Source of the DNA: an uncultured Gammaproteobacteria bacterium
GTDB taxonomy: Bacteria > Pseudomonadota > Gammaproteobacteria > Steroidobacterales > Rariloculaceae
Assembly: GCA_963748045.1 (NCBI GenBank)
Contig: CAVVIC010000009.1
Location: 6,154-70,153, forward strand
Direction: 5' to 3'
Length of the DNA stretch: 64,000 nt
Shown piece by piece: positions 58,735-64,000 of this stretch (position 1 is its first letter; every line of letters starts with the position of its first letter). The notes under the pieces are model-generated. The model had not been told where the DNA came from and made no database searches. It worked only from the letters and a program-made list of their open reading frames with translations. The position numbers and the translations under genes are program-made.

Positions 58735-60362
58735 TCAGGCCGTTGCGTTGCCGCTGTTATACCGGCCGAGCAACACCGTCACGATCATGCCGAAGCCGAG
58801 CACCGTCAGCACGAAGTTCACGATGCCGCCGACGATCGGCAGGTTGATCGCGATCACCACGATGGCGAGTCCCGCGATCAGCGTCGCCGCGTAGTGCGGC
58901 AGGCCGGCCGGCGACTGGAACAGCGTGCGCCCGATCATCTGCGCGATGACCGTCTTCCCGAAGTAGAGGCCGATGGCGCCGACCATGAACGTCAGGACGC
59001 CGATCGGGATGCCGACGATCGTGATGCAGGCCAGGATCGCCGCGATCGGCATGACTATGGCCGCCACGAGACCGATGCCGCCGCTGCGTAGCGCGGCGCC
59101 GACGGTCGGCAACGACAGCGTGCGCAACACCGGGAACGCCCATAGCAGCAGTAGGCCGGTCAGGAACGCGGCGCCGAGCCGCACGACCTGGCGGACGTAG
59201 AAGCCCGTGGTCAGATAGCGATTGCGCCGCTGCTCGCGCTCGACGATCTTCCGGTCCACGGTGCCGCCGATCGTGGCGCCCTGGGCGACCTGCAGCTTGT
59301 TGTCGTCGTCGACGTGCGCCGTGACGTTGCGACCGATACGCGCGGAGGGCAGCACGGAGATCAGTTCGCCCGCGTACGCCACGAAGTCGCGTTGCACGTT
59401 GCCGGTCACGACGACGTTGTTGCCGAAGCTGCTTAGATCCATGCCCACTCGGCCGTCGATGTTCACCGTGTCGCCGAACGTCAGCGCGTTGCCGGCAACC
59501 TCGGCGCTTCCATCGAAAGCCAAGATCGCGGCCGAAACCGAAGAAGTTGCGACCGACGTGCGTGCCGCGCAGCGATACGCCGCGGCCGGCGCCGACGATG
59601 TCGCCGCCGACCGTGCCTTCGATCGTCACGGTTTCGGCGCCCGTGATCACGTTGCCGGTGACGTTGCCGCGAATCGTGACCGAGCGGCCAAAGGCGAACA
59701 GATCGCCGTTCACGGTGCCGTCGATGGCCACGGTCTGGCCGGCGGCGATCAACGTGTCGTCGATCGTTTCGCCGGCGGCGACGGTGACCACGCCTTCGCC
59801 GTGCCGAAGTCTCGAGCGCGTGGCCGGGCCTCGGCAGCGCCACAGCCGCTACGAGCAACGACACGAGCAATGCGGCGCTGCCGCGACCACGGGCAAGCGA
59901 TAAGGTCGTCCACGCGAGCAGCGCAACGGCCAGCGTCGCGGCGACCAGGTTCAATGCAGAAGTCAGCATGGTGTTTCCCTCGCTAAGCAAGAATGCGATG
60001 AAAGAGATGGCGCGCTCGGCGAGCTCGCCGGATTGAAAAGGGTTCAGCCACTGCAAGCCGCTCGGGATCGCCTCGGCGACTGCGGTCCAGAAGGCCCCGG
60101 CGACCGCTGCGACCGCGAGCACGCCGAGCGTCAACACGAGCAGATCGCGCGACCGCGCCGGCGGCACGAAGACTGGAATCTTCGCGTGCGCCTCGTCGGT
60201 CTGTAGCGCGGCGCGCAACGCCACACGCTCGGCGCGTAGAGAGGCCACTTTCGCGCTGCACGCAGAGCAGCCGCGCAGGTGCAGGGCCGCGGCGGCCGCC
60301 TGCTCCGGCGGCAACGCGTCGTCTGCGTACATCGAGCGGGTCACGGCGGAAAGGCAGGTCAC
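58735..60362 (-). CDS. zf-HC2 anti-sigma factor fused to a bactofilin-like beta-helix and a multi-TM domain; frameshifted
   Basis: HLRGCSAC; TMs; repeats V.IDGTVNGDLFAFG.SVTI.G.V.GNVI; C-terminal ITIVGIPIG...LP.VG...GFG TM bundle. Confidence 0.8.
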
Positions 60363-60877
60363 GATGCAGTCTCCTCGGCCAAGGTTTTTCGTAGCGCCTG
60401 TTTGGCGCGGCACAACAACGTGCCGACGTGCGTGCGCGTGATGCCGAGCTCCGCGGCGATCTCGTCGTAGCTCGCGTCGGCGAAGTAGGCGAGCGCGAGC
60501 GGCACGCGATAACGCTCGGGCAGGGCTTCGACCGCGGCCTGCACGGACCGCGCGCGCTCGGCCGTCAGCAGCTCGCCGAGACCGTCGGCGTCGTCGGCTT
60601 CGGCGGCCGCGGCTTCCTCGGCTTCGGTGCCGAACGCGGTGGGCTCGAAGCGACGCCGGCGCAGCAGATCCAGAGAATGATTGCGGGCGATCTTCATGAT
60701 CCACGGTCCGAAAGGTTGCGCGGGGTCGTAGCCCGCGAAGCCGCGATACGCCCGCATGAACGCTTCCTGCGCCGCGTCGTCGGCACGCTCGGCAGAGCCG
60801 AGCAGGTGCCGGCATAGCGCGCGGACTTGGGCGTAGTGTTTTGCGTAGAGCGCCGCAAAGGCTGCCTCCTTCGTCAT
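60359..60877 (-). CDS. ECF sigma-70 factor
   Basis: AF..LY..H, ADDAAQEAF.RAY, F.PW..KIARN..LD.LRRR, LPERYR, SYDEIA..LG. Confidence 0.92.
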   Translation of the reverse strand: MTKEAAFAALYAKHYAQVRALCRHLLGSAERADDAAQEAFMRAYRGFAGYDPAQPFGPWIMKIARNHSLDLLRRRRFEPTAFGTEAEEAAAAEADDADGLGELLTAERARSVQAAVEALPERYRVPLALAYFADASYDEIAAELGITRTHVGTLLCRAKQALRKTLAEETAS

Positions 60878-60939
60878 CGCGGTTCCTGGTGTCTCTACTG
60901 GTTGATACGCCTGGGCTCGGGATTTATTACAGTAAGCCG

Positions 60940-61362
60940 ATGCCCGAGCCACGAGAACTCGCAACGGCGCGCCGGCACTTGGCCCGAGCCGAGGCCGAGC
61001 TCGATTCCGCCGACGGTTTGGCGCGGCTCGCCGAGGGGTTGAGCCTGCTGGACGCCCTGATCGCCGGGCGCGACGCGGCCGTCGCGCGCACGGCCGGGAA
61101 TCTCGCGGCGAGCTACGCGGGGCGAATCTACGAGCGTATCGGCGCGGCCGTGGCGAAGGATCCGCAGCTGCCGGAGCCGACGCTCGAGCACTATTTCAAG
61201 GTGGTGCTGGCGCTCGATCAGGTCGGCGAGGCGTTACCCGCGACGGCGGCCGAGCTGAAGCTCGCCGTGGTGCGCGCGCTGATCGACCGCTACTACGAAG
61301 GCCATTCGCCGGCGGAGAAGCGCCGCGCGCTCGAGCAGCTCGCTGCGCTTACGGGCGATTGA
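60940..61362 (+). CDS. Hypothetical alpha-helical protein
   Basis: ATG at 60940; coding-like codon usage; fills the gap between neighbouring genes. Confidence 0.65.
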   Translation: MPEPRELATARRHLARAEAELDSADGLARLAEGLSLLDALIAGRDAAVARTAGNLAASYAGRIYERIGAAVAKDPQLPEPTLEHYFKVVLALDQVGEALPATAAELKLAVVRALIDRYYEGHSPAEKRRALEQLAALTGD

Positions 61363-61366
61363 CGCG

Positions 61367-62760
61367 CTAGAAGTCGACGGCGGCCGCGTCCGCCGCGATC
61401 ACTTCGCGGTACACCGGCAGCGACCAGCCCTGCTTCTCGAGATCTTCGAGCCGCGCTTCGACCTTGCGCATGTAGTCGCGCTTGTTGCCGTACAGCTCCT
61501 TGAGCTTCTCTTTCGAGTACGGCTCCTGATACGCGGAGAGGCGGCACATGATCTGCGCGCCCTGCATGCCGTTCGCGGCGACGTAGGCACTCGGATTCGC
61601 AATCAACGGCTCTGCCGCCGTGTTGCTGGCCGAGTACTTGGCCGTCGGTACGTCGACGTACGGAGTGCGGATGCCGCCGAGCGGATTGCCGTTCGCGTCG
61701 AGCGCCATCATCGAGCCGTCGTTGCTCGTGTCGCGGTCGAGCAGTACTCGCGGTGCGCGCGGTGGCGCTAGCCCCAAATCCACCCAGCGGAACAGGTGAT
61801 ACAGGCCCACCGAGAAATAAGCCTGCTCGGGCAGCGTGCTCAGTGGCTTCGTGCACGGATTCGGGTGCAGCCGCACGTTGTCGCGCGAGTCGACGTGGCC
61901 GATGCCCGCGACCTCGTACAGCCGGAACTGCTTGCCGGGCTCGTCGCTGTCCTGGCGGCGCGGCACGTTCGTCTCCTGCTCGAGCATCGTCGGCATCTCG
62001 ATCAGCGGCACGTCGATCTCGCGAATCGTGCCGCCGTACGACGTCGGCATGAAGCCGTCGAAGATCCGCTGCATGTCCGGCGTGCGGAACACCATGTGCG
62101 CGGGCAGGTAGTTCACGAGCGTGCCGCTGCTCATCGACGTGCCGGCCATGACCATTTTGCGAACGCGCAGCTTGCCGAACGGGCCGCGATCGCTTTTCAC
62201 GAGCGCGCCGACCTGCGCGATGATCTCGTTCTGCTGGCCGTCCGCGAGCTTAAGCTTCTCGTAGCGCTTCGCGTTCAGCGCGATGAACTGCTGCGGCGAC
62301 GTCGTCAGCACCTCGACGGCGGCGTGACCCGGAGCTCATGAGGTAGGCCGCCGTGAATTCGAACGCGTGCGCGGCGCCGCTCGAATGCATCGATTCCGCG
62401 AGCACGAGCCCGCTGAACTTGCCGTCCTCGGCCGGCTGGCGCACCACGACGCGTGTCGTGTACGGCTTGCCGTCCGCCGTGCCGGACACGAAATACTCAG
62501 TGGTCTTGTAGTGGAAGTGGGCCGGGTCGAGCCCTTTCATCTGCGATGGCGCGGAGTCGAACATCGCGCCGGGGCCGGTGACAGGCGCCGACAACGTCGG
62601 CAGCGCTACCGCGGTCGGCACCTTCGGAATGCCTTCGATCTCCGGTTCGGGGCGCGGGCCGCCGAAACCGGACGGTGGCTGGGCGAGCGCAGAGGTGGCA
62701 ATGGTCAGGCCGGCGACCGCTAGCGCGGCAGCGGCCGAACGCAAGATGACGTACAGACAT
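61367..62760 (-). CDS. Secreted alpha/beta hydrolase domain protein; frameshifted
   Basis: Signal peptide; EYFVSGTA...YTTRVVVR.P...KFSG, GTSMSS, RLYEVAG..H, D..GN.LGGIR.P.VDVP, L.ELYG...Y. Confidence 0.85.
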
Positions 62761-62861
62761 GGAGTTCCCCCGGGAACGTGTTAGCGCGGCACGATACGGC
62801 AGGGTAGCGAAACCAGAAGCCTAGGTGCTGGTCTCTAGAGAAATCTTGCGTGGCCGAGCCA

Positions 62862-63653
62862 TCAACGGTCTTGGGTCGCTGCAGCACGAATGTGCGCGGC
62901 GAGCTCGTTCGGTATGCTGACTTGCGGGAAATGCCGGCACGGAAGAAAGCCTATCGGTATGCCCGCGACATCGGCGACTTTGCGATTGCCGGTGTACAGC
63001 GCTTCCACCGGCGGATGACCCACGGTCCAGGTCACGGGCCGCCGCGTCAGCTCGACGCGCGTGAACTCCCGCCACGGGTGTGGCGATGCGACGTACACCC
63101 TTGCCCAGGTGACATAGTTCTTCGCGAGGCGCGCGTGGTACTCGGCGCCGAGCGCGTCCCACGCCGCCGCGTTCTCGTTCAGCACGTTGCGGAACAGGAA
63201 CTCGCAGGTCTTGACCACGGTGGCGTCGTCCGGCGAGAAGATCCCCTCGAATGGCCCGGCCGCGCCTCGAAGGGGCACCGCAAGCTCGTGCACGATCACG
63301 TTCCGCACCAGCTCCGGGTGCGCTGCCGCGAGCGCCAGCGCGAACAATCCTCCGGAACTGCATCCGTAGATCGTGGCGCGTTCGATGCGCAGGGATCGCA
63401 GCAGCGCAGCAATCTGTGCGGTGACTTCATCCGTCGAGAGGCCGGTGAAGTTCGGCGGTACGCTCGAGCGCGAGAACCCCGGCATGTCGAACGTCAGGAC
63501 GCTGAACTCGTCGGCGAGCAGGTCTGCCACCCGCCCCAGGGATTCGCAGTCGCCCTCGCCGGAGGGAATCAGTACGACCGGTGGCCCGACGCCGCGTTGC
63601 TCGCAATACCAATCGATATCGGTCGCGCGCTGGTGAAATACTGAGGTGGCCAC
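62862..63653 (-). CDS. Alpha/beta hydrolase closely resembling fungal zearalenone lactonohydrolase ZHD101
   Basis: WY.EQ.G.GP.VVL.P.G.G.C, TFDMPG.SRS, GCSSG, RN...HEL, AW.A.G.E.HARL.KNY..WAR.Y, P..WTVG, G.LP..HFP.VS.P. Confidence 0.85.
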   Translation of the reverse strand: MATSVFHQRATDIDWYCEQRGVGPPVVLIPSGEGDCESLGRVADLLADEFSVLTFDMPGFSRSSVPPNFTGLSTDEVTAQIAALLRSLRIERATIYGCSSGGLFALALAAAHPELVRNVIVHELAVPLRGAAGPFEGIFSPDDATVVKTCEFLFRNVLNENAAAWDALGAEYHARLAKNYVTWARVYVASPHPWREFTRVELTRRPVTWTVGHPPVEALYTGNRKVADVAGIPIGFLPCRHFPQVSIPNELAAHIRAAATQDR

Positions 63654-63762
63654 GGACGATCCCCGGGTCGCCGCGATTCGGCGTGGGGACGTTACGCGAC
63701 CGTCGATGAAACTGGAAGGCCCCGCGCGGAGCGGCGGGTGCGTCGGTTGGGAGCGAGGTTCG

Positions 63763-64000
63763 CTAACGGCGAACGACGGCGTGAATCACACGCTCGTGCT
63801 CGAAGTACACGGAGAAGTTGGGATAGTCCCAACGCGTGATCGGCGGTTGACCGACCGTGGCGTGCTTCTGTGCCGGCGCACCGTACGTCGACTCGACCGC
63901 AGTCATCGTCATGCCGGATTTCGGCCGTGCGGACGCCGACTGAGCGTCGGATTCGACGCCGTCGAGCAGCAGCGTATCCGCGCGAGCGGCACCCGCGACC
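63763..64000 (-). CDS. Small periplasmic protein (SmpA/OmlA-like), 5' end outside the window
   Basis: Translation ...ADTLLLDGV...RPKSGMTMTAVESTYGAP...VGQPPITRWDYPNFSVYFEHERVIHAVVRR*. It is not in the ORF track. Confidence 0.8.
   Translation of the reverse strand, partial: VAGAARADTLLLDGVESDAQSASARPKSGMTMTAVESTYGAPAQKHATVGQPPITRWDYPNFSVYFEHERVIHAVVRR

Follow-up and report, generated by a model that had tools for sequence, protein, structure and literature searches.

Zearalenone lactonases and related hydrolases

Zearalenone lactonases are among the most mined and most engineered of the mycotoxin-detoxifying enzymes. The closest described system is ZHD101 of Clonostachys rosea with its characterised fungal homologues (RmZHD/ZHD518, CbZHD, ZHD607, ZENM, ZHRnZ and others; PDB entries 3wzl, 5c7y, 5xo6, 5xwz, 6l7m, 9m5f and 8jlv). 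ZHD101 is described as a homodimer in section 5 of PMC12613374, where the characterised enzymes of this type are said to be all fungal and most of them heat-labile, and Table 1 of that source gives a kcat/Km of roughly 1e4 per s per M. The same table agrees with the original prediction, which had described the known members of the subfamily as fungal. In 2014, ZHD homologues were concluded to form a purely fungal clade (PMC4021089). According to PMC6165071, nine residues surround the substrate in ZHD101, and P128 and P192 are binding hotspots by alanine scanning; Trp183 is a substrate contact in both PMC6165071 and PMC10921726, and Tyr187 in PMC10921726.

The lactone of zearalenone is also hydrolysed by bacterial enzymes of the ZenA type (Rhodococcus erythropolis ZenA, ZenR, ZenH and GhZH; PMC10913051). 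These belong to another subfamily: they have a mass of 35-36 kDa and a triad of Ser, Asp and His, and they share 19-23% identity with ZHD101 (PMC12613374 and PMC10913051); in the latter source the substrate enters these enzymes from the front of the cap. The bacterial zearalenone hydrolases tabulated in PMC12613374 are 19-31% identical to ZHD101. A search of openly accessible papers found nothing on bacterial ZHD-type enzymes, nothing pertinent on horizontal transfer, ancestral reconstruction or similarity networks of the ZHD family, and nothing relevant on the PDB entries 6L7M, 9M5F, 8JLV and 5XWZ; it likewise found no activity reports on the protein studied here, on its bacterial relatives or on the second fungal clade discussed below.

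Homology and fold

The gene encodes a protein of 263 aa, which the original prediction had called a bacterial homologue of ZHD101, of similar length and collinear with it. Searching the PDB with phmmer gave 118 sequences at E<=0.01, and the best 60 of the 118 were listed. The 14 best distinct sequences are all of the ZHD family, with E values from 2e-49 to 6.1e-43 (1e-46 for the ZHD101 group) over query residues 11/12 to 255/256. A bromoperoxidase, in 15th place, reaches 4.6e-8 over residues 9-127 only, in the N-terminal half. The similarity to ZHD101 is well above both chance and the level of generic alpha/beta-hydrolases, and the collinearity with the 264-aa ZHD101 extends across core and cap. 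Compared globally with 22 named fungal ZHD homologues, the protein shows 33-39% identity.

A structural model was generated with AlphaFold (AF2; pLDDT 95.6, pTM 0.93) and compared with known structures using Foldseek. Ranks 1-30 are all occupied by ZHD structures (TM 0.88-0.91, rmsd 1.8-2.3 A; TM 0.90 for the ZHD101 group), giving the structural comparison that had been proposed for the homology claim, and the first match outside the family, 3qyj, follows at TM 0.78 and rmsd 4.3 A. The full-length ZHD alignments, in sequence as in structure, take in the cap domain. The 3-oxoadipate enol-lactonase PcaD (TIGR02427; PDB 2xua), also an alpha/beta-hydrolase lactonase, heads the NCBIfam matches and turns up weakly in the PDB and Foldseek searches, but differs in fold detail (TM 0.72, rmsd 4.1 A) and in the absence of pca genes nearby. 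The NCBIfam assignments to PcaD (50.8 bits, where the cut-off is 255.85, and confined to residues 23-124) and to BioH (TIGR01738; 33.6 bits against 206.95) were both rejected, as was membership of the ZenA type: the protein has 263 aa and Glu as its acid, and no ZenA-named entry occurs among the best 60 of the 118 PDB matches. As judged from homology, fold and an intact Ser-His-Glu triad, membership of the ZHD family in the broad sense is solid.

The gene and its coding region

Feature coordinates are collected in Table 1. The ORF listing gives an intact frame with exactly the limits shown there. The GTG start is supported by the orthologue L001 (93% identical), which has ATG at the equivalent codon, and by the SD-like site, at whose position L001 carries GGAGA. 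The dN/dS ratio between the gene and L001 is 0.087, and the gene is under purifying selection; its GC content of 0.659 matches the 0.664 of the window (the whole stretch of 64,000 nucleotides that was analysed). Scanning positions 62600-64000 for promoters and terminators yielded no promoter-like site and one terminator-like site, which is intragenic, a result not above that of shuffled sequences. A paralogue search of the same genome returned a single further alpha/beta-hydrolase match, which is weak (E 5.5e-6). A look-up of data sets containing the sequence gave no RNA data set and eight DNA data sets, with shares of at most 0.22, and we base no statement about expression or habitat on it.

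Table 1. Positions in the window of the coding sequence and of the elements assigned to it
Feature	Position	Strand	Remarks
ZHD-family alpha/beta-hydrolase CDS, 263 aa	62862..63653	minus	GTG start 63651-63653; signal peptide absent
SD-like GGGGA	63660..63664	minus	6 nt 5' of the GTG start; read from the sequence
Post-beta3 loop S31-G32-E33-G34-D35-C36	63546..63563	minus	G32 corresponds to oxyanion/substrate-contact Gly32 of ZHD101
Nucleophile elbow G97-C98-S99-S100-G101	63351..63365	minus	Ser99 predicted nucleophile; Ser100 corresponds to ZHD101 Ser103
Glu123, triad acid (ZHD101 Glu126)	63285..63287	minus	ends/directly follows strand E116-124
Helical cap, ~residues 128-205	63039..63272	minus	inserted between strands E116-124 and E207-212
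Cap helix C150...F154	63192..63206	minus	pocket residues of the bacterial type; the ZHD101 clade has M/L150 and M154
Cap segment W183-A-R-V-Y187	63093..63107	minus	Trp183 and Tyr187 align with substrate contacts of ZHD101
C239-R240-H241	62931..62939	minus	catalytic His corresponds to ZHD101 His242; Gly-Met before His in the ZHD101 clade

Catalytic residues and pocket signature

Residues were mapped through the phmmer alignment to 3wzl (chain numbering = native +14), and the codons were checked. Two comparisons were made, one of residues in 29 bacterial and 22 fungal ZHD rows and one of clades, with 24 rows of the ZHD101 clade and 17 of a second fungal clade (clade 2). The motifs named in the original prediction are all present in the alignment to 3wzl (WYCEQRGVGPPVVLIPSGEGDC, TFDMPGFSRS, GCSSG, HEL, AWDALGAEYHARLAKNYVTWARVY, WTVG and LPCRHFPQVSIP), and the triad and cap tryptophan that it took to be intact are confirmed by alignment and codons: Ser99 corresponds to ZHD101 Ser102, Glu123 to Glu126 and His241 to His242, while Trp183 and Tyr187 keep the same numbers in both proteins. 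The cap contains helices at residues 136-139, 143-157, 162-166, 170-188 and 199-202 (DSSP on the model). In common with the ZHD101 group, the protein has a triad Glu placed after strand beta6, residues G32, S103, N179, W183 and Y187, and the motifs GCSSG, TFDMPG.SRS, WTVG and HFP; the substrate-anchoring set G32, S103, W183 and Y187 is thereby complete. G32, S102, S103, E126, N179, W183, Y187 and H242 (ZHD101 numbering) occur in 29/29 bacterial rows, so that both serines of the elbow (Ser99 and Ser100 here) are serine throughout, and W183 and Y187 also occur in all 22 fungal rows.

Around this shared core the pocket departs from that of the ZHD101 group, from which the protein further differs in being bacterial, in its identity of 33-39% and in its position outside their clade. 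The ZHD101-clade signature, given as majority states over 24 rows, is D31, L33, M/L150, M154, G186, P188, P192, G240 and M241; at these nine ZHD101 positions the corresponding query residues are S, E, C, F, V, V, H, C and R, the last two being its own C239 and R240, and at position 35 it has D where the ZHD101 clade has E. Seven of these states (S31, E33, D35, C150, F154, C240 and K/R241, against D, L, E, M/L, M, G and M in the 24 ZHD101-clade rows) are found in the 29 bacterial rows and in most of the 17 clade-2 rows. In particular, S31, E33 and D35 are present in 29/29 bacterial and 17/17 clade-2 rows, with D, L and E in most of the 22 fungal ZHD rows, and positions 240, 241 and 242 hold C, K or R, and H in every bacterial row. 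Clade 2 further carries C150 in 15/17 rows, F154 in 16/17, C or S at 240 in 16/17 and K or R at 241 in 13/17. Among the nine substrate-surrounding residues given in PMC6165071, the query is identical at five (G32, W183, S102, H242 and E126), and the other four are hydrophobic-for-hydrophobic replacements (L135F, V153L, M154F and V158L); the hotspots P128 and P192 of that source are A and H. Covariation suggests a contact between E33 and R240 close to the catalytic centre, as well as the geometry of the pocket.

Distribution, genomic neighbourhood and phylogeny

The bacterial group takes in 538 protein clusters at E<=1e-10, and 44 clusters reach E<=1e-30. It is represented in some 30 species genomes, among them those of cultured Mycobacterium and Mycolicibacterium (for instance Mycolicibacterium peregrinum DSM 43271 and Mycobacterium neumannii CECT 8766). 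It is large and patchily distributed, and the gene is not unique; the homology on which the original prediction was built stands, as do the collinearity, the triad and the cap Trp, but the singularity it implied does not, with hundreds of bacterial homologues already public. The closest relatives are bacterial proteins with 49-93% identity, some of them from Mycobacterium/Mycolicibacterium isolates. The gene is present in 4/22 other genomes of the genus, in 0/14 from other genera of the family and in 0/24 from the order. A twin-arginine-type signal peptide, seen for instance in P0049 and P0036, is carried by 20 of the 120 best homologues, from which it follows that part of the ZHD family probably acts in the periplasm, a hint of an exogenous substrate.

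The gene is stand-alone and accessory, with no conserved operon partner. When 160 neighbour ORFs from 29 loci were compared all against all by BLAST, no family was common beyond close kin; the largest groups come from five Mycobacterium loci with common Na/H exchanger and TrkA genes. A Pfam search covering 55 of the 109 nearest neighbour ORFs returned a heterogeneous mix. Among the 28 related loci surveyed (neighbours of 27 were searched against Pfam), no clue to the substrate was found in the gene neighbourhood: a flavin monooxygenase of the FMO/Baeyer-Villiger type adjoins the gene at L006 alone, and two loci have glyoxalase-fold genes.

In the maximum-likelihood tree the query is placed among the bacterial rows, in a group that also holds L001, L002 and P0121 (97/80). 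The characterised zearalenone lactonases all lie within one fungal clade, outside which the query falls; this ZHD101 clade joins clade 2 in a separate fungal super-clade (100/100), and the fungi are nested inside the bacteria. Clade 2 is eukaryotic (Lachnellula, Neophaeococcomyces, Xylogone, Leptodontidium, Cudoniella and Tricladium, and the lichen fungi Dirinaria and Lecanora), and its member P0124 is 46-50% identical to bacterial members. The labels 'zearalenone hydrolase' and 'ZEN-JJM' attached to some clade-2 entries are database names and no proof of activity.

Proposed function and alternative explanations

We favour, with a probability of about 0.6, the reading that the protein is a phenolic-ester/lactone hydrolase of an older type, which in nature probably acts on a resorcylate-type ester or lactone encountered in soil; the reading rests on alcohol-side residues of the bacterial/clade-2 type, which are absent from the characterised zearalenone lactonases. 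[quoted passage not shown] Ser99 of the GCSSG elbow, activated by His241 and Glu123, is predicted to attack the lactone or ester carbonyl, with the backbone amides of Gly32 and Ser100 as the putative oxyanion hole, while the helical cap would close over a largely hydrophobic pocket. By analogy with ZHD101, Trp183 and Tyr187 may hydrogen-bond the phenolic (resorcylate-type) acyl part, a role carried over from the ZHD101 papers. The alcohol or macrolactone side is likely lined by E33, C150, F154, L158, V188, H192, C239 and R240. To our knowledge, there is no sequence-defined bacterial enzyme for the resorcylate-type ester/lactone class.

Family membership is solid, yet activity on zearalenone is only a guess, since the pocket signature is not that of the characterised clade. 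The original prediction saw here a resorcylic-acid-lactone hydrolase relevant to mycotoxin detoxification, and a functional equivalent of ZHD101, efficiently cleaving zearalenone or other resorcylic acid lactones and so detoxifying or consuming fungal macrolactones, would accord with the full-length homology, the fold match, the retention of the triad with G32, S103, W183 and Y187, and a pocket that is still mostly hydrophobic. The genomes concerned are also labelled as soil-type bacteria, soil being home to Fusarium and other producers, and the unrelated bacterial alpha/beta-hydrolases of the ZenA type hydrolyse zearalenone (PMC10913051). Nevertheless, the query falls outside the clade that contains every characterised zearalenone lactonase and differs at nine pocket or pocket-adjacent positions, including L33 to E and M241 to R by the oxyanion Gly and the catalytic His, and both binding hotspots are replaced. 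Homology of 34-39% predicts little about substrate, given that fungal paralogues within the ZHD101 clade, 57-58% identical to ZHD101 and with the same triad, are reported as inactive on zearalenone in PMC10921726. We therefore consider an efficient lactonase of this kind unlikely, while some measurable hydrolysis of zearalenone is conceivable, if short of what we would expect.

The charged residues E33 and R240 near the catalytic centre could also indicate a polar substrate unlike the resorcylates. On such a reading the protein would hydrolyse an unrelated compound, perhaps an aliphatic ester, an enol-lactone from the catabolism of aromatics or a BioH-like pimeloyl-ACP methyl ester, and the residues shared with ZHD101 would be structural. 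Many homologues are labelled 'pimeloyl-ACP methyl ester carboxylesterase' by JGI and the top NCBIfam matches are PcaD-type enol-lactonases, but these matches score far under their cut-offs and are confined to the N-terminal half, pca and bio genes are absent from the flanks here and at the related loci, and the cap, which carries specificity, aligns with ZHDs only; we regard this explanation as improbable. That the gene is not a working bacterial gene at all, through fungal contamination of the metagenome-assembled genome, pseudogenisation or an assembly artefact, might be suspected from an assembly 69% complete in 32 contigs, from the frameshift that splits the adjoining Abhydrolase_10 gene and from the imperfect taxon labels of such genomes. 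This is rejected as very improbable on the intact frame, the conserved start with its SD-like site, the selection and GC values given above, the 193-kb contig with bacterial genes around (an ECF sigma factor, a signal peptidase and a MacB-type ABC transporter) and the bacterial closest relatives, cultured isolates among them.

Evolutionary interpretation

For the preferred reading of an older-type hydrolase, we tentatively sketch a history that we hold to be rather doubtful as a whole. The bacterial and clade-2 proteins would represent the ancestral ZHD form; Pezizomycotina would have acquired the gene once from bacteria, and zearalenone lactonase activity would have arisen later in one fungal lineage by remodelling of the pocket, in the course of which, among other changes, the covarying pair E33...K/R241 next to the oxyanion hole and the catalytic His gave way to L33...M241. 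Ancestral-type enzymes, some of them Tat-exported, would act on esters or lactones of the resorcylate type, such as further resorcylic lactones of fungi or, speculatively, lichen orsellinate depsides, the latter being a speculation of our own. Two AU tests did not reject the alternatives to the nesting of fungi inside bacteria (p 0.29 and 0.19), and we make no firm claim on the direction of transfer. The bacterial/fungal question raised by the original prediction is a real one, but the tree that it called for leaves the origin unsettled.

The bacterial homologues revise the 2014 view of a purely fungal clade (PMC4021089) and make the origin of the family testable. They also form an apparently unexplored reservoir of the ZHD fold, with cultured Mycobacterium/Mycolicibacterium genes and Tat-exported variants among the new starting points for enzyme discovery. 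Should the enzyme prove inactive on zearalenone, the comparison would still yield specificity determinants and hint at another natural substrate. The two groups amount to a natural experiment on the pocket residues of zearalenone lactonases, with the putatively ancestral states S/E/C/F/C/K-R set against the derived D/L/M/M/G/M.

Family membership and predicted structure

The original prediction placed the gene at exactly the limits of a listed ORF (263 aa, minus strand) and proposed a bacterial homologue of ZHD101, the zearalenone hydrolase (ZHD) of Clonostachys rosea. When this protein, the query, was compared with all PDB chains using phmmer, 118 distinct sequences matched at E<=0.01 and the best 60 were listed. 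The top 14 all belong to the ZHD family (9m5f, 6l7m, 3wzl, 5c7y, 5ie4, 3wzm and 5ie5, followed by 6jr9, 6jqz, 5z5j, 5z97, 5xo6, 5xwz and 8jlv), with E-values of 2e-49 to 6.1e-43, each spanning query residues 11/12 to 255/256. Similarity to the ZHD101 family is clearly higher than to generic α/β-hydrolases, as the 15th match is a bromoperoxidase (E 4.6e-8) covering residues 9-127 only. Pfam assigned the generic Abhydrolase_1 and Abhydrolase_6 families only, and no NCBIfam model reached its cut-off, the best being a PcaD-type model (50.8 bits against 255.85) and the BioH model scoring 33.6 bits (cut-off 206.95). The motifs listed in the original prediction are all visible in the alignment with 3wzl, and the Ser-Glu-His triad and cap Trp are intact as proposed: Ser99, Glu123, His241 and Trp183 align with their ZHD101 counterparts. 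Equivalences were counted along this alignment, in which chain numbering equals native numbering +14, and the codons were verified.

Positions of genes and residue equivalences
Feature	Position	Strand	Detail
ZHD-like gene	window 62862..63653	minus	263 aa, GTG start (ORF listing)
Abhydrolase_10 (PF20091) gene	window 61367-62744	minus	ORFs 62250-62744 (profile positions 11-110) and 61367-62311 (128-425)
ECF sigma factor (Sigma70_r2/r4), then zf-HC2 anti-sigma-like ORF	window 59481-60964 (-) and 58735-59791		
IS91-family transposase	L037:7702-9180 (G000:C9)		Y2_Tnp + Zn_Tnp_IS91
AraC-family regulator, FMO/Baeyer-Villiger-type monooxygenase	L006:4389-5732 and L006:6852-8495		flank the L006 ZHD-like gene
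Predicted nucleophile	query Ser99		ZHD101 Ser102
Serine	query Ser100		ZHD101 Ser103
Triad acid	query Glu123		ZHD101 Glu126
Triad histidine	query His241		ZHD101 His242
Glycine	query Gly32		ZHD101 Gly32
Tryptophan	query Trp183		ZHD101 Trp183
Tyrosine	query Tyr187		ZHD101 Tyr187

An AlphaFold2 model built from a 77-sequence alignment (mean pLDDT 95.6, pTM 0.93) contains a helical cap (helices 136-139, 143-157, 162-166, 170-188 and 199-202) that follows strand 116-124 and precedes strand 207-212. Foldseek comparison with the PDB likewise bears out the proposed kinship: ranks 1-30 are ZHD structures (TM 0.88-0.91, rmsd 1.8-2.3 Å, 33-38% identity), followed by 3qyj at TM 0.78 and rmsd 4.3 Å. Membership of the ZHD family is thus solid by homology, fold and catalytic machinery.

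Bacterial ZHD-type proteins in the literature

A 2014 search for bacterial homologues described the ZHD homologues as a monophyletic fungal clade whose place within the α/β-hydrolases was uncertain (PMC4021089). The characterized members had been described as fungal in the original prediction, and Table 1 of a 2025 review agrees, its ZHD101-type enzymes all being fungal; the bacterial zearalenone hydrolases described there share little identity with ZHD101 (ZenA 23%, ZenH 19%, Bacillus ZENY 31%; PMC12613374). ZenA is placed in a different subfamily (PMC10913051). Passages of a 2026 review (PMC13665256) add nothing further on bacterial ZHD-type enzymes, and our literature search, which covered sources other than subscription journals, patents and PDF supplements, returned no paper dealing with such proteins or with the family's transfer.

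Distribution of bacterial relatives

At E<=1e-10, a word-seeded search recovered 538 protein clusters (90% identity), and the best 120 of these are 49-70% identical to the query; their named members are all bacterial (Gammaproteobacteria, Steroidobacteraceae, Mycolicibacterium), many carrying the automatic JGI label 'pimeloyl-ACP methyl ester carboxylesterase'. When 1.84 billion representatives (50% clusters) were searched exhaustively, 405 clusters matched at E<=1e-10, and 44 did so at E<=1e-30. The query is one among hundreds of uncharacterized relatives. Of 97 pattern matches in contigs drawn from one genome per species, 34 encode a relative; 30 of these are near full-length (loci L001-L030), with frameshifts or stops in L027 and L030. 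By record title, the carriers comprise MAGs of Gammaproteobacteria, Alphaproteobacteria, Acidobacteriota, Actinomycetota and Chloroflexota, and the cultured Mycobacterium neumannii CECT 8766, Mycolicibacterium sp. 050232, Mycolicibacterium peregrinum DSM 43271 and Mycobacterium sp. NPDC049093. MAG labels call for caution: L015 (Thermoleophilia) and L016 (Vicinamibacterales), assigned to different phyla, are 96.8% identical in nucleotide sequence along 11.85 kb surrounding the gene, reflecting either conflicting labels or binning, or the very recent transfer of a large segment. The gene of L024, a contig of 3.97 kb labelled Sericytochromatia, falls within the Mycobacterium clade.

Within the genus of the window's genome, the gene occurs in 4 of 22 other genomes searched (93, 65, 57 and 60% identity); it was found in 0 of 14 genomes from the family's other genera and 0 of 24 in the order, several of them incomplete. 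The gene is accessory. The copies in the congeneric carriers G002, G003, G020 and G021 come from different tree subclades, which points to several acquisitions, or old paralogues with losses, in one genus.

An N-terminal twin-arginine (Tat)-type signal (e.g. M..SRR.F...SA.G.LG) is present in 20 of the best 120 homologues, including proteins P0028, P0031, P0035, P0036 and P0049, and 26 of the 120 have extensions of at least 35 residues. Part of the family would, on these signals, be exported, whereas the query and its orthologue L001 would not; no signal peptide was found in the query.

Phylogeny

Fungal proteins were collected from two seeds. P0128, whose cluster contains Eutypa lata proteins, led to named fungal ZHD homologues, including those of Clonostachys rosea, Rhinocladiella mackenziei (RmZHD), Cladophialophora bantiana (CbZHD), Exophiala aquamarina, Rosellinia necatrix and Monosporascus. 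P0124, 46-50% identical to bacterial members, led to a second fungal set (Lachnellula, Neophaeococcomyces, Xylogone, Leptodontidium, Cudoniella, Stipitochalara, Tricladium and the lichen fungi Dirinaria and Lecanora). The maximum-likelihood tree (84 rows, 263 columns, LG+C20+F+G4 by PMSF) comprised the query, 26 bacterial loci, 32 named fungal proteins from the two lists of 120, 18 full-length representatives of 150 from the exhaustive search, and 7 distant outgroup representatives; L027 and L030 (frameshifts) and L016 and L023 (duplicates) were left off.

The fungal rows and nine further representatives, among them P0158 from Xylariaceae, form one super-clade (100/100), within which all characterized enzymes occupy one subclade. 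The query clusters with L001 (100/100), L002 (100/89) and P0121 (97/80). When the tree is rooted on the outgroup, the fungal super-clade lies among three bacterial subclades (100/98), and successively deeper branches are L010 (98/95), P0123 (100/95), P0129 (100/95), then P0134+P0161, P0163+P0189 and P0150; the P0161 cluster contains an Anaerolineaceae MAG protein. On the bacterial or fungal origin raised in the original prediction, this topology leans towards bacteria, with a single transfer into fungi. Approximately unbiased (AU) tests, however, rejected neither a single clade of the 30 bacterial rows (lnL loss 10.66, p-AU 0.291) nor a fungal super-clade beside the outgroup (lnL loss 15.85, p-AU 0.191).

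Substrate pocket and function

Residues reported around the ZHD101 substrate are Gly32, Trp183, Leu135, Val153, Met154, Val158, Ser102, His242 and Glu126, with alanine-scan hotspots at Gly32, Ser103, Pro128, Leu132 and Pro192 (PMC6165071); S103, G32, W183 and Y187 are described as supplying hydrogen bonds (PMC10921726), and S102, L135, W183, F221 and H242 as key residues (bioRxiv 10.1101/2024.12.11.628026). In alignments numbered on the C. rosea homologue P0357, G32, G34, C36, S102, S103, E126, N179, W183, Y187, H242 and P244 are kept in 29/29 bacterial and 21-22/22 fungal rows.

Pocket states by clade (rows with the state in brackets)
Position	Bacterial (n=29)	Fungal clade 2, the second set (n=17)	ZHD101 clade (n=24), mostly
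31	S (29)	S (17)	D
33	E (29)	E (17)	L
35	D (29)	D (17)	E
150	C (26)	C (15)	M or L
154	F (26)	F (16)	M
240	C (29)	C or S (16)	G
241	K or R (28)	K or R (13)	M
186, 188, 192			G186, P188, P192

In the deep lineages, positions 31 and 33 are Ser or polar, 35 is Asp and 240 is Cys or Ser; the ZHD101-type pocket is therefore the derived state. The query has the older state (S31, E33, D35, C150, F154, V186, V188, H192, C239, R240) and is a bacterial, ancestral-pocket member of the family. E33 with K/R241 and L33 with M241 are swapped as pairs between clades; this covariation suggests that positions 33 and 241 may touch, beside the oxyanion Gly32 and the triad histidine.

The original reading, a resorcylic-acid-lactone hydrolase, is thus partly supported: the ZHD101-family homology, fold and triad agree with it, the pocket type does not. 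Predicted acyl-side (phenol-binding) residues are kept and predicted alcohol-side residues changed relative to ZHD101, a pattern that would fit a resorcylate-type ester or lactone hydrolase with a different alcohol part. Zearalenone hydrolysis itself is possible but doubtful (probability about 0.35), because no characterized enzyme has this pocket type, two charged residues stand for hydrophobic ones at the pocket base, and two paralogues from the ZHD101 clade that share the triad and 57-58% identity with ZHD101 were reported inactive (PMC10921726). The existence of relatives with Tat-type export signals would agree with activity on exogenous compounds.

Genomic context

The window (G000:C9:6154-70153) is part of a 193-kb contig; the assembly totals 4.31 Mb in 32 contigs and is 69% complete. 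The ZHD-like gene is a working bacterial gene: its GC content is 0.659 (window 0.664), its flanking genes are bacterial, and its orthologue in the Gammaproteobacteria MAG locus L001 is 93% identical, with dN/dS 0.087 (dS 0.435, dN 0.038). Collinearity with L001 extends from the upstream gene across the intergenic region and through the ZHD-like gene; L001 has ATG at the codon of the GTG start, and 6 nt upstream stands GGGGA in the window and GGAGA in L001.

Across the related loci surveyed, the neighbourhood offers no substrate clue; L006 (Gammaproteobacteria MAG), where the gene is flanked by an AraC regulator and a flavin monooxygenase, is the sole one that hints at lactone metabolism. Glyoxalase-fold genes occur at two loci and unrelated genes at others. 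Upstream of the ZHD-like gene are a 92-aa small gene, MacB-type ABC transporter genes and then, ~4 kb past the window's end, the IS91-family transposase; the MacB-type permease is a single 833-aa ORF here and two ORFs (411 + 421 aa) in L001. Downstream lie the Abhydrolase_10 gene, the ECF sigma and zf-HC2 anti-sigma factors, and signal peptidase I. The directly adjacent Abhydrolase_10 gene is split over two overlapping ORFs, indicating a frameshift (pseudogene or assembly error); L001 lacks it, similarity to the window stopping ~65 bp past the ZHD-like stop codon. Several long ORFs overlap in the sigma/anti-sigma region, possibly another frameshift, and the L001 counterpart of the zf-HC2 ORF is a 540-aa protein fusing zf-HC2 to a weak bactofilin match.
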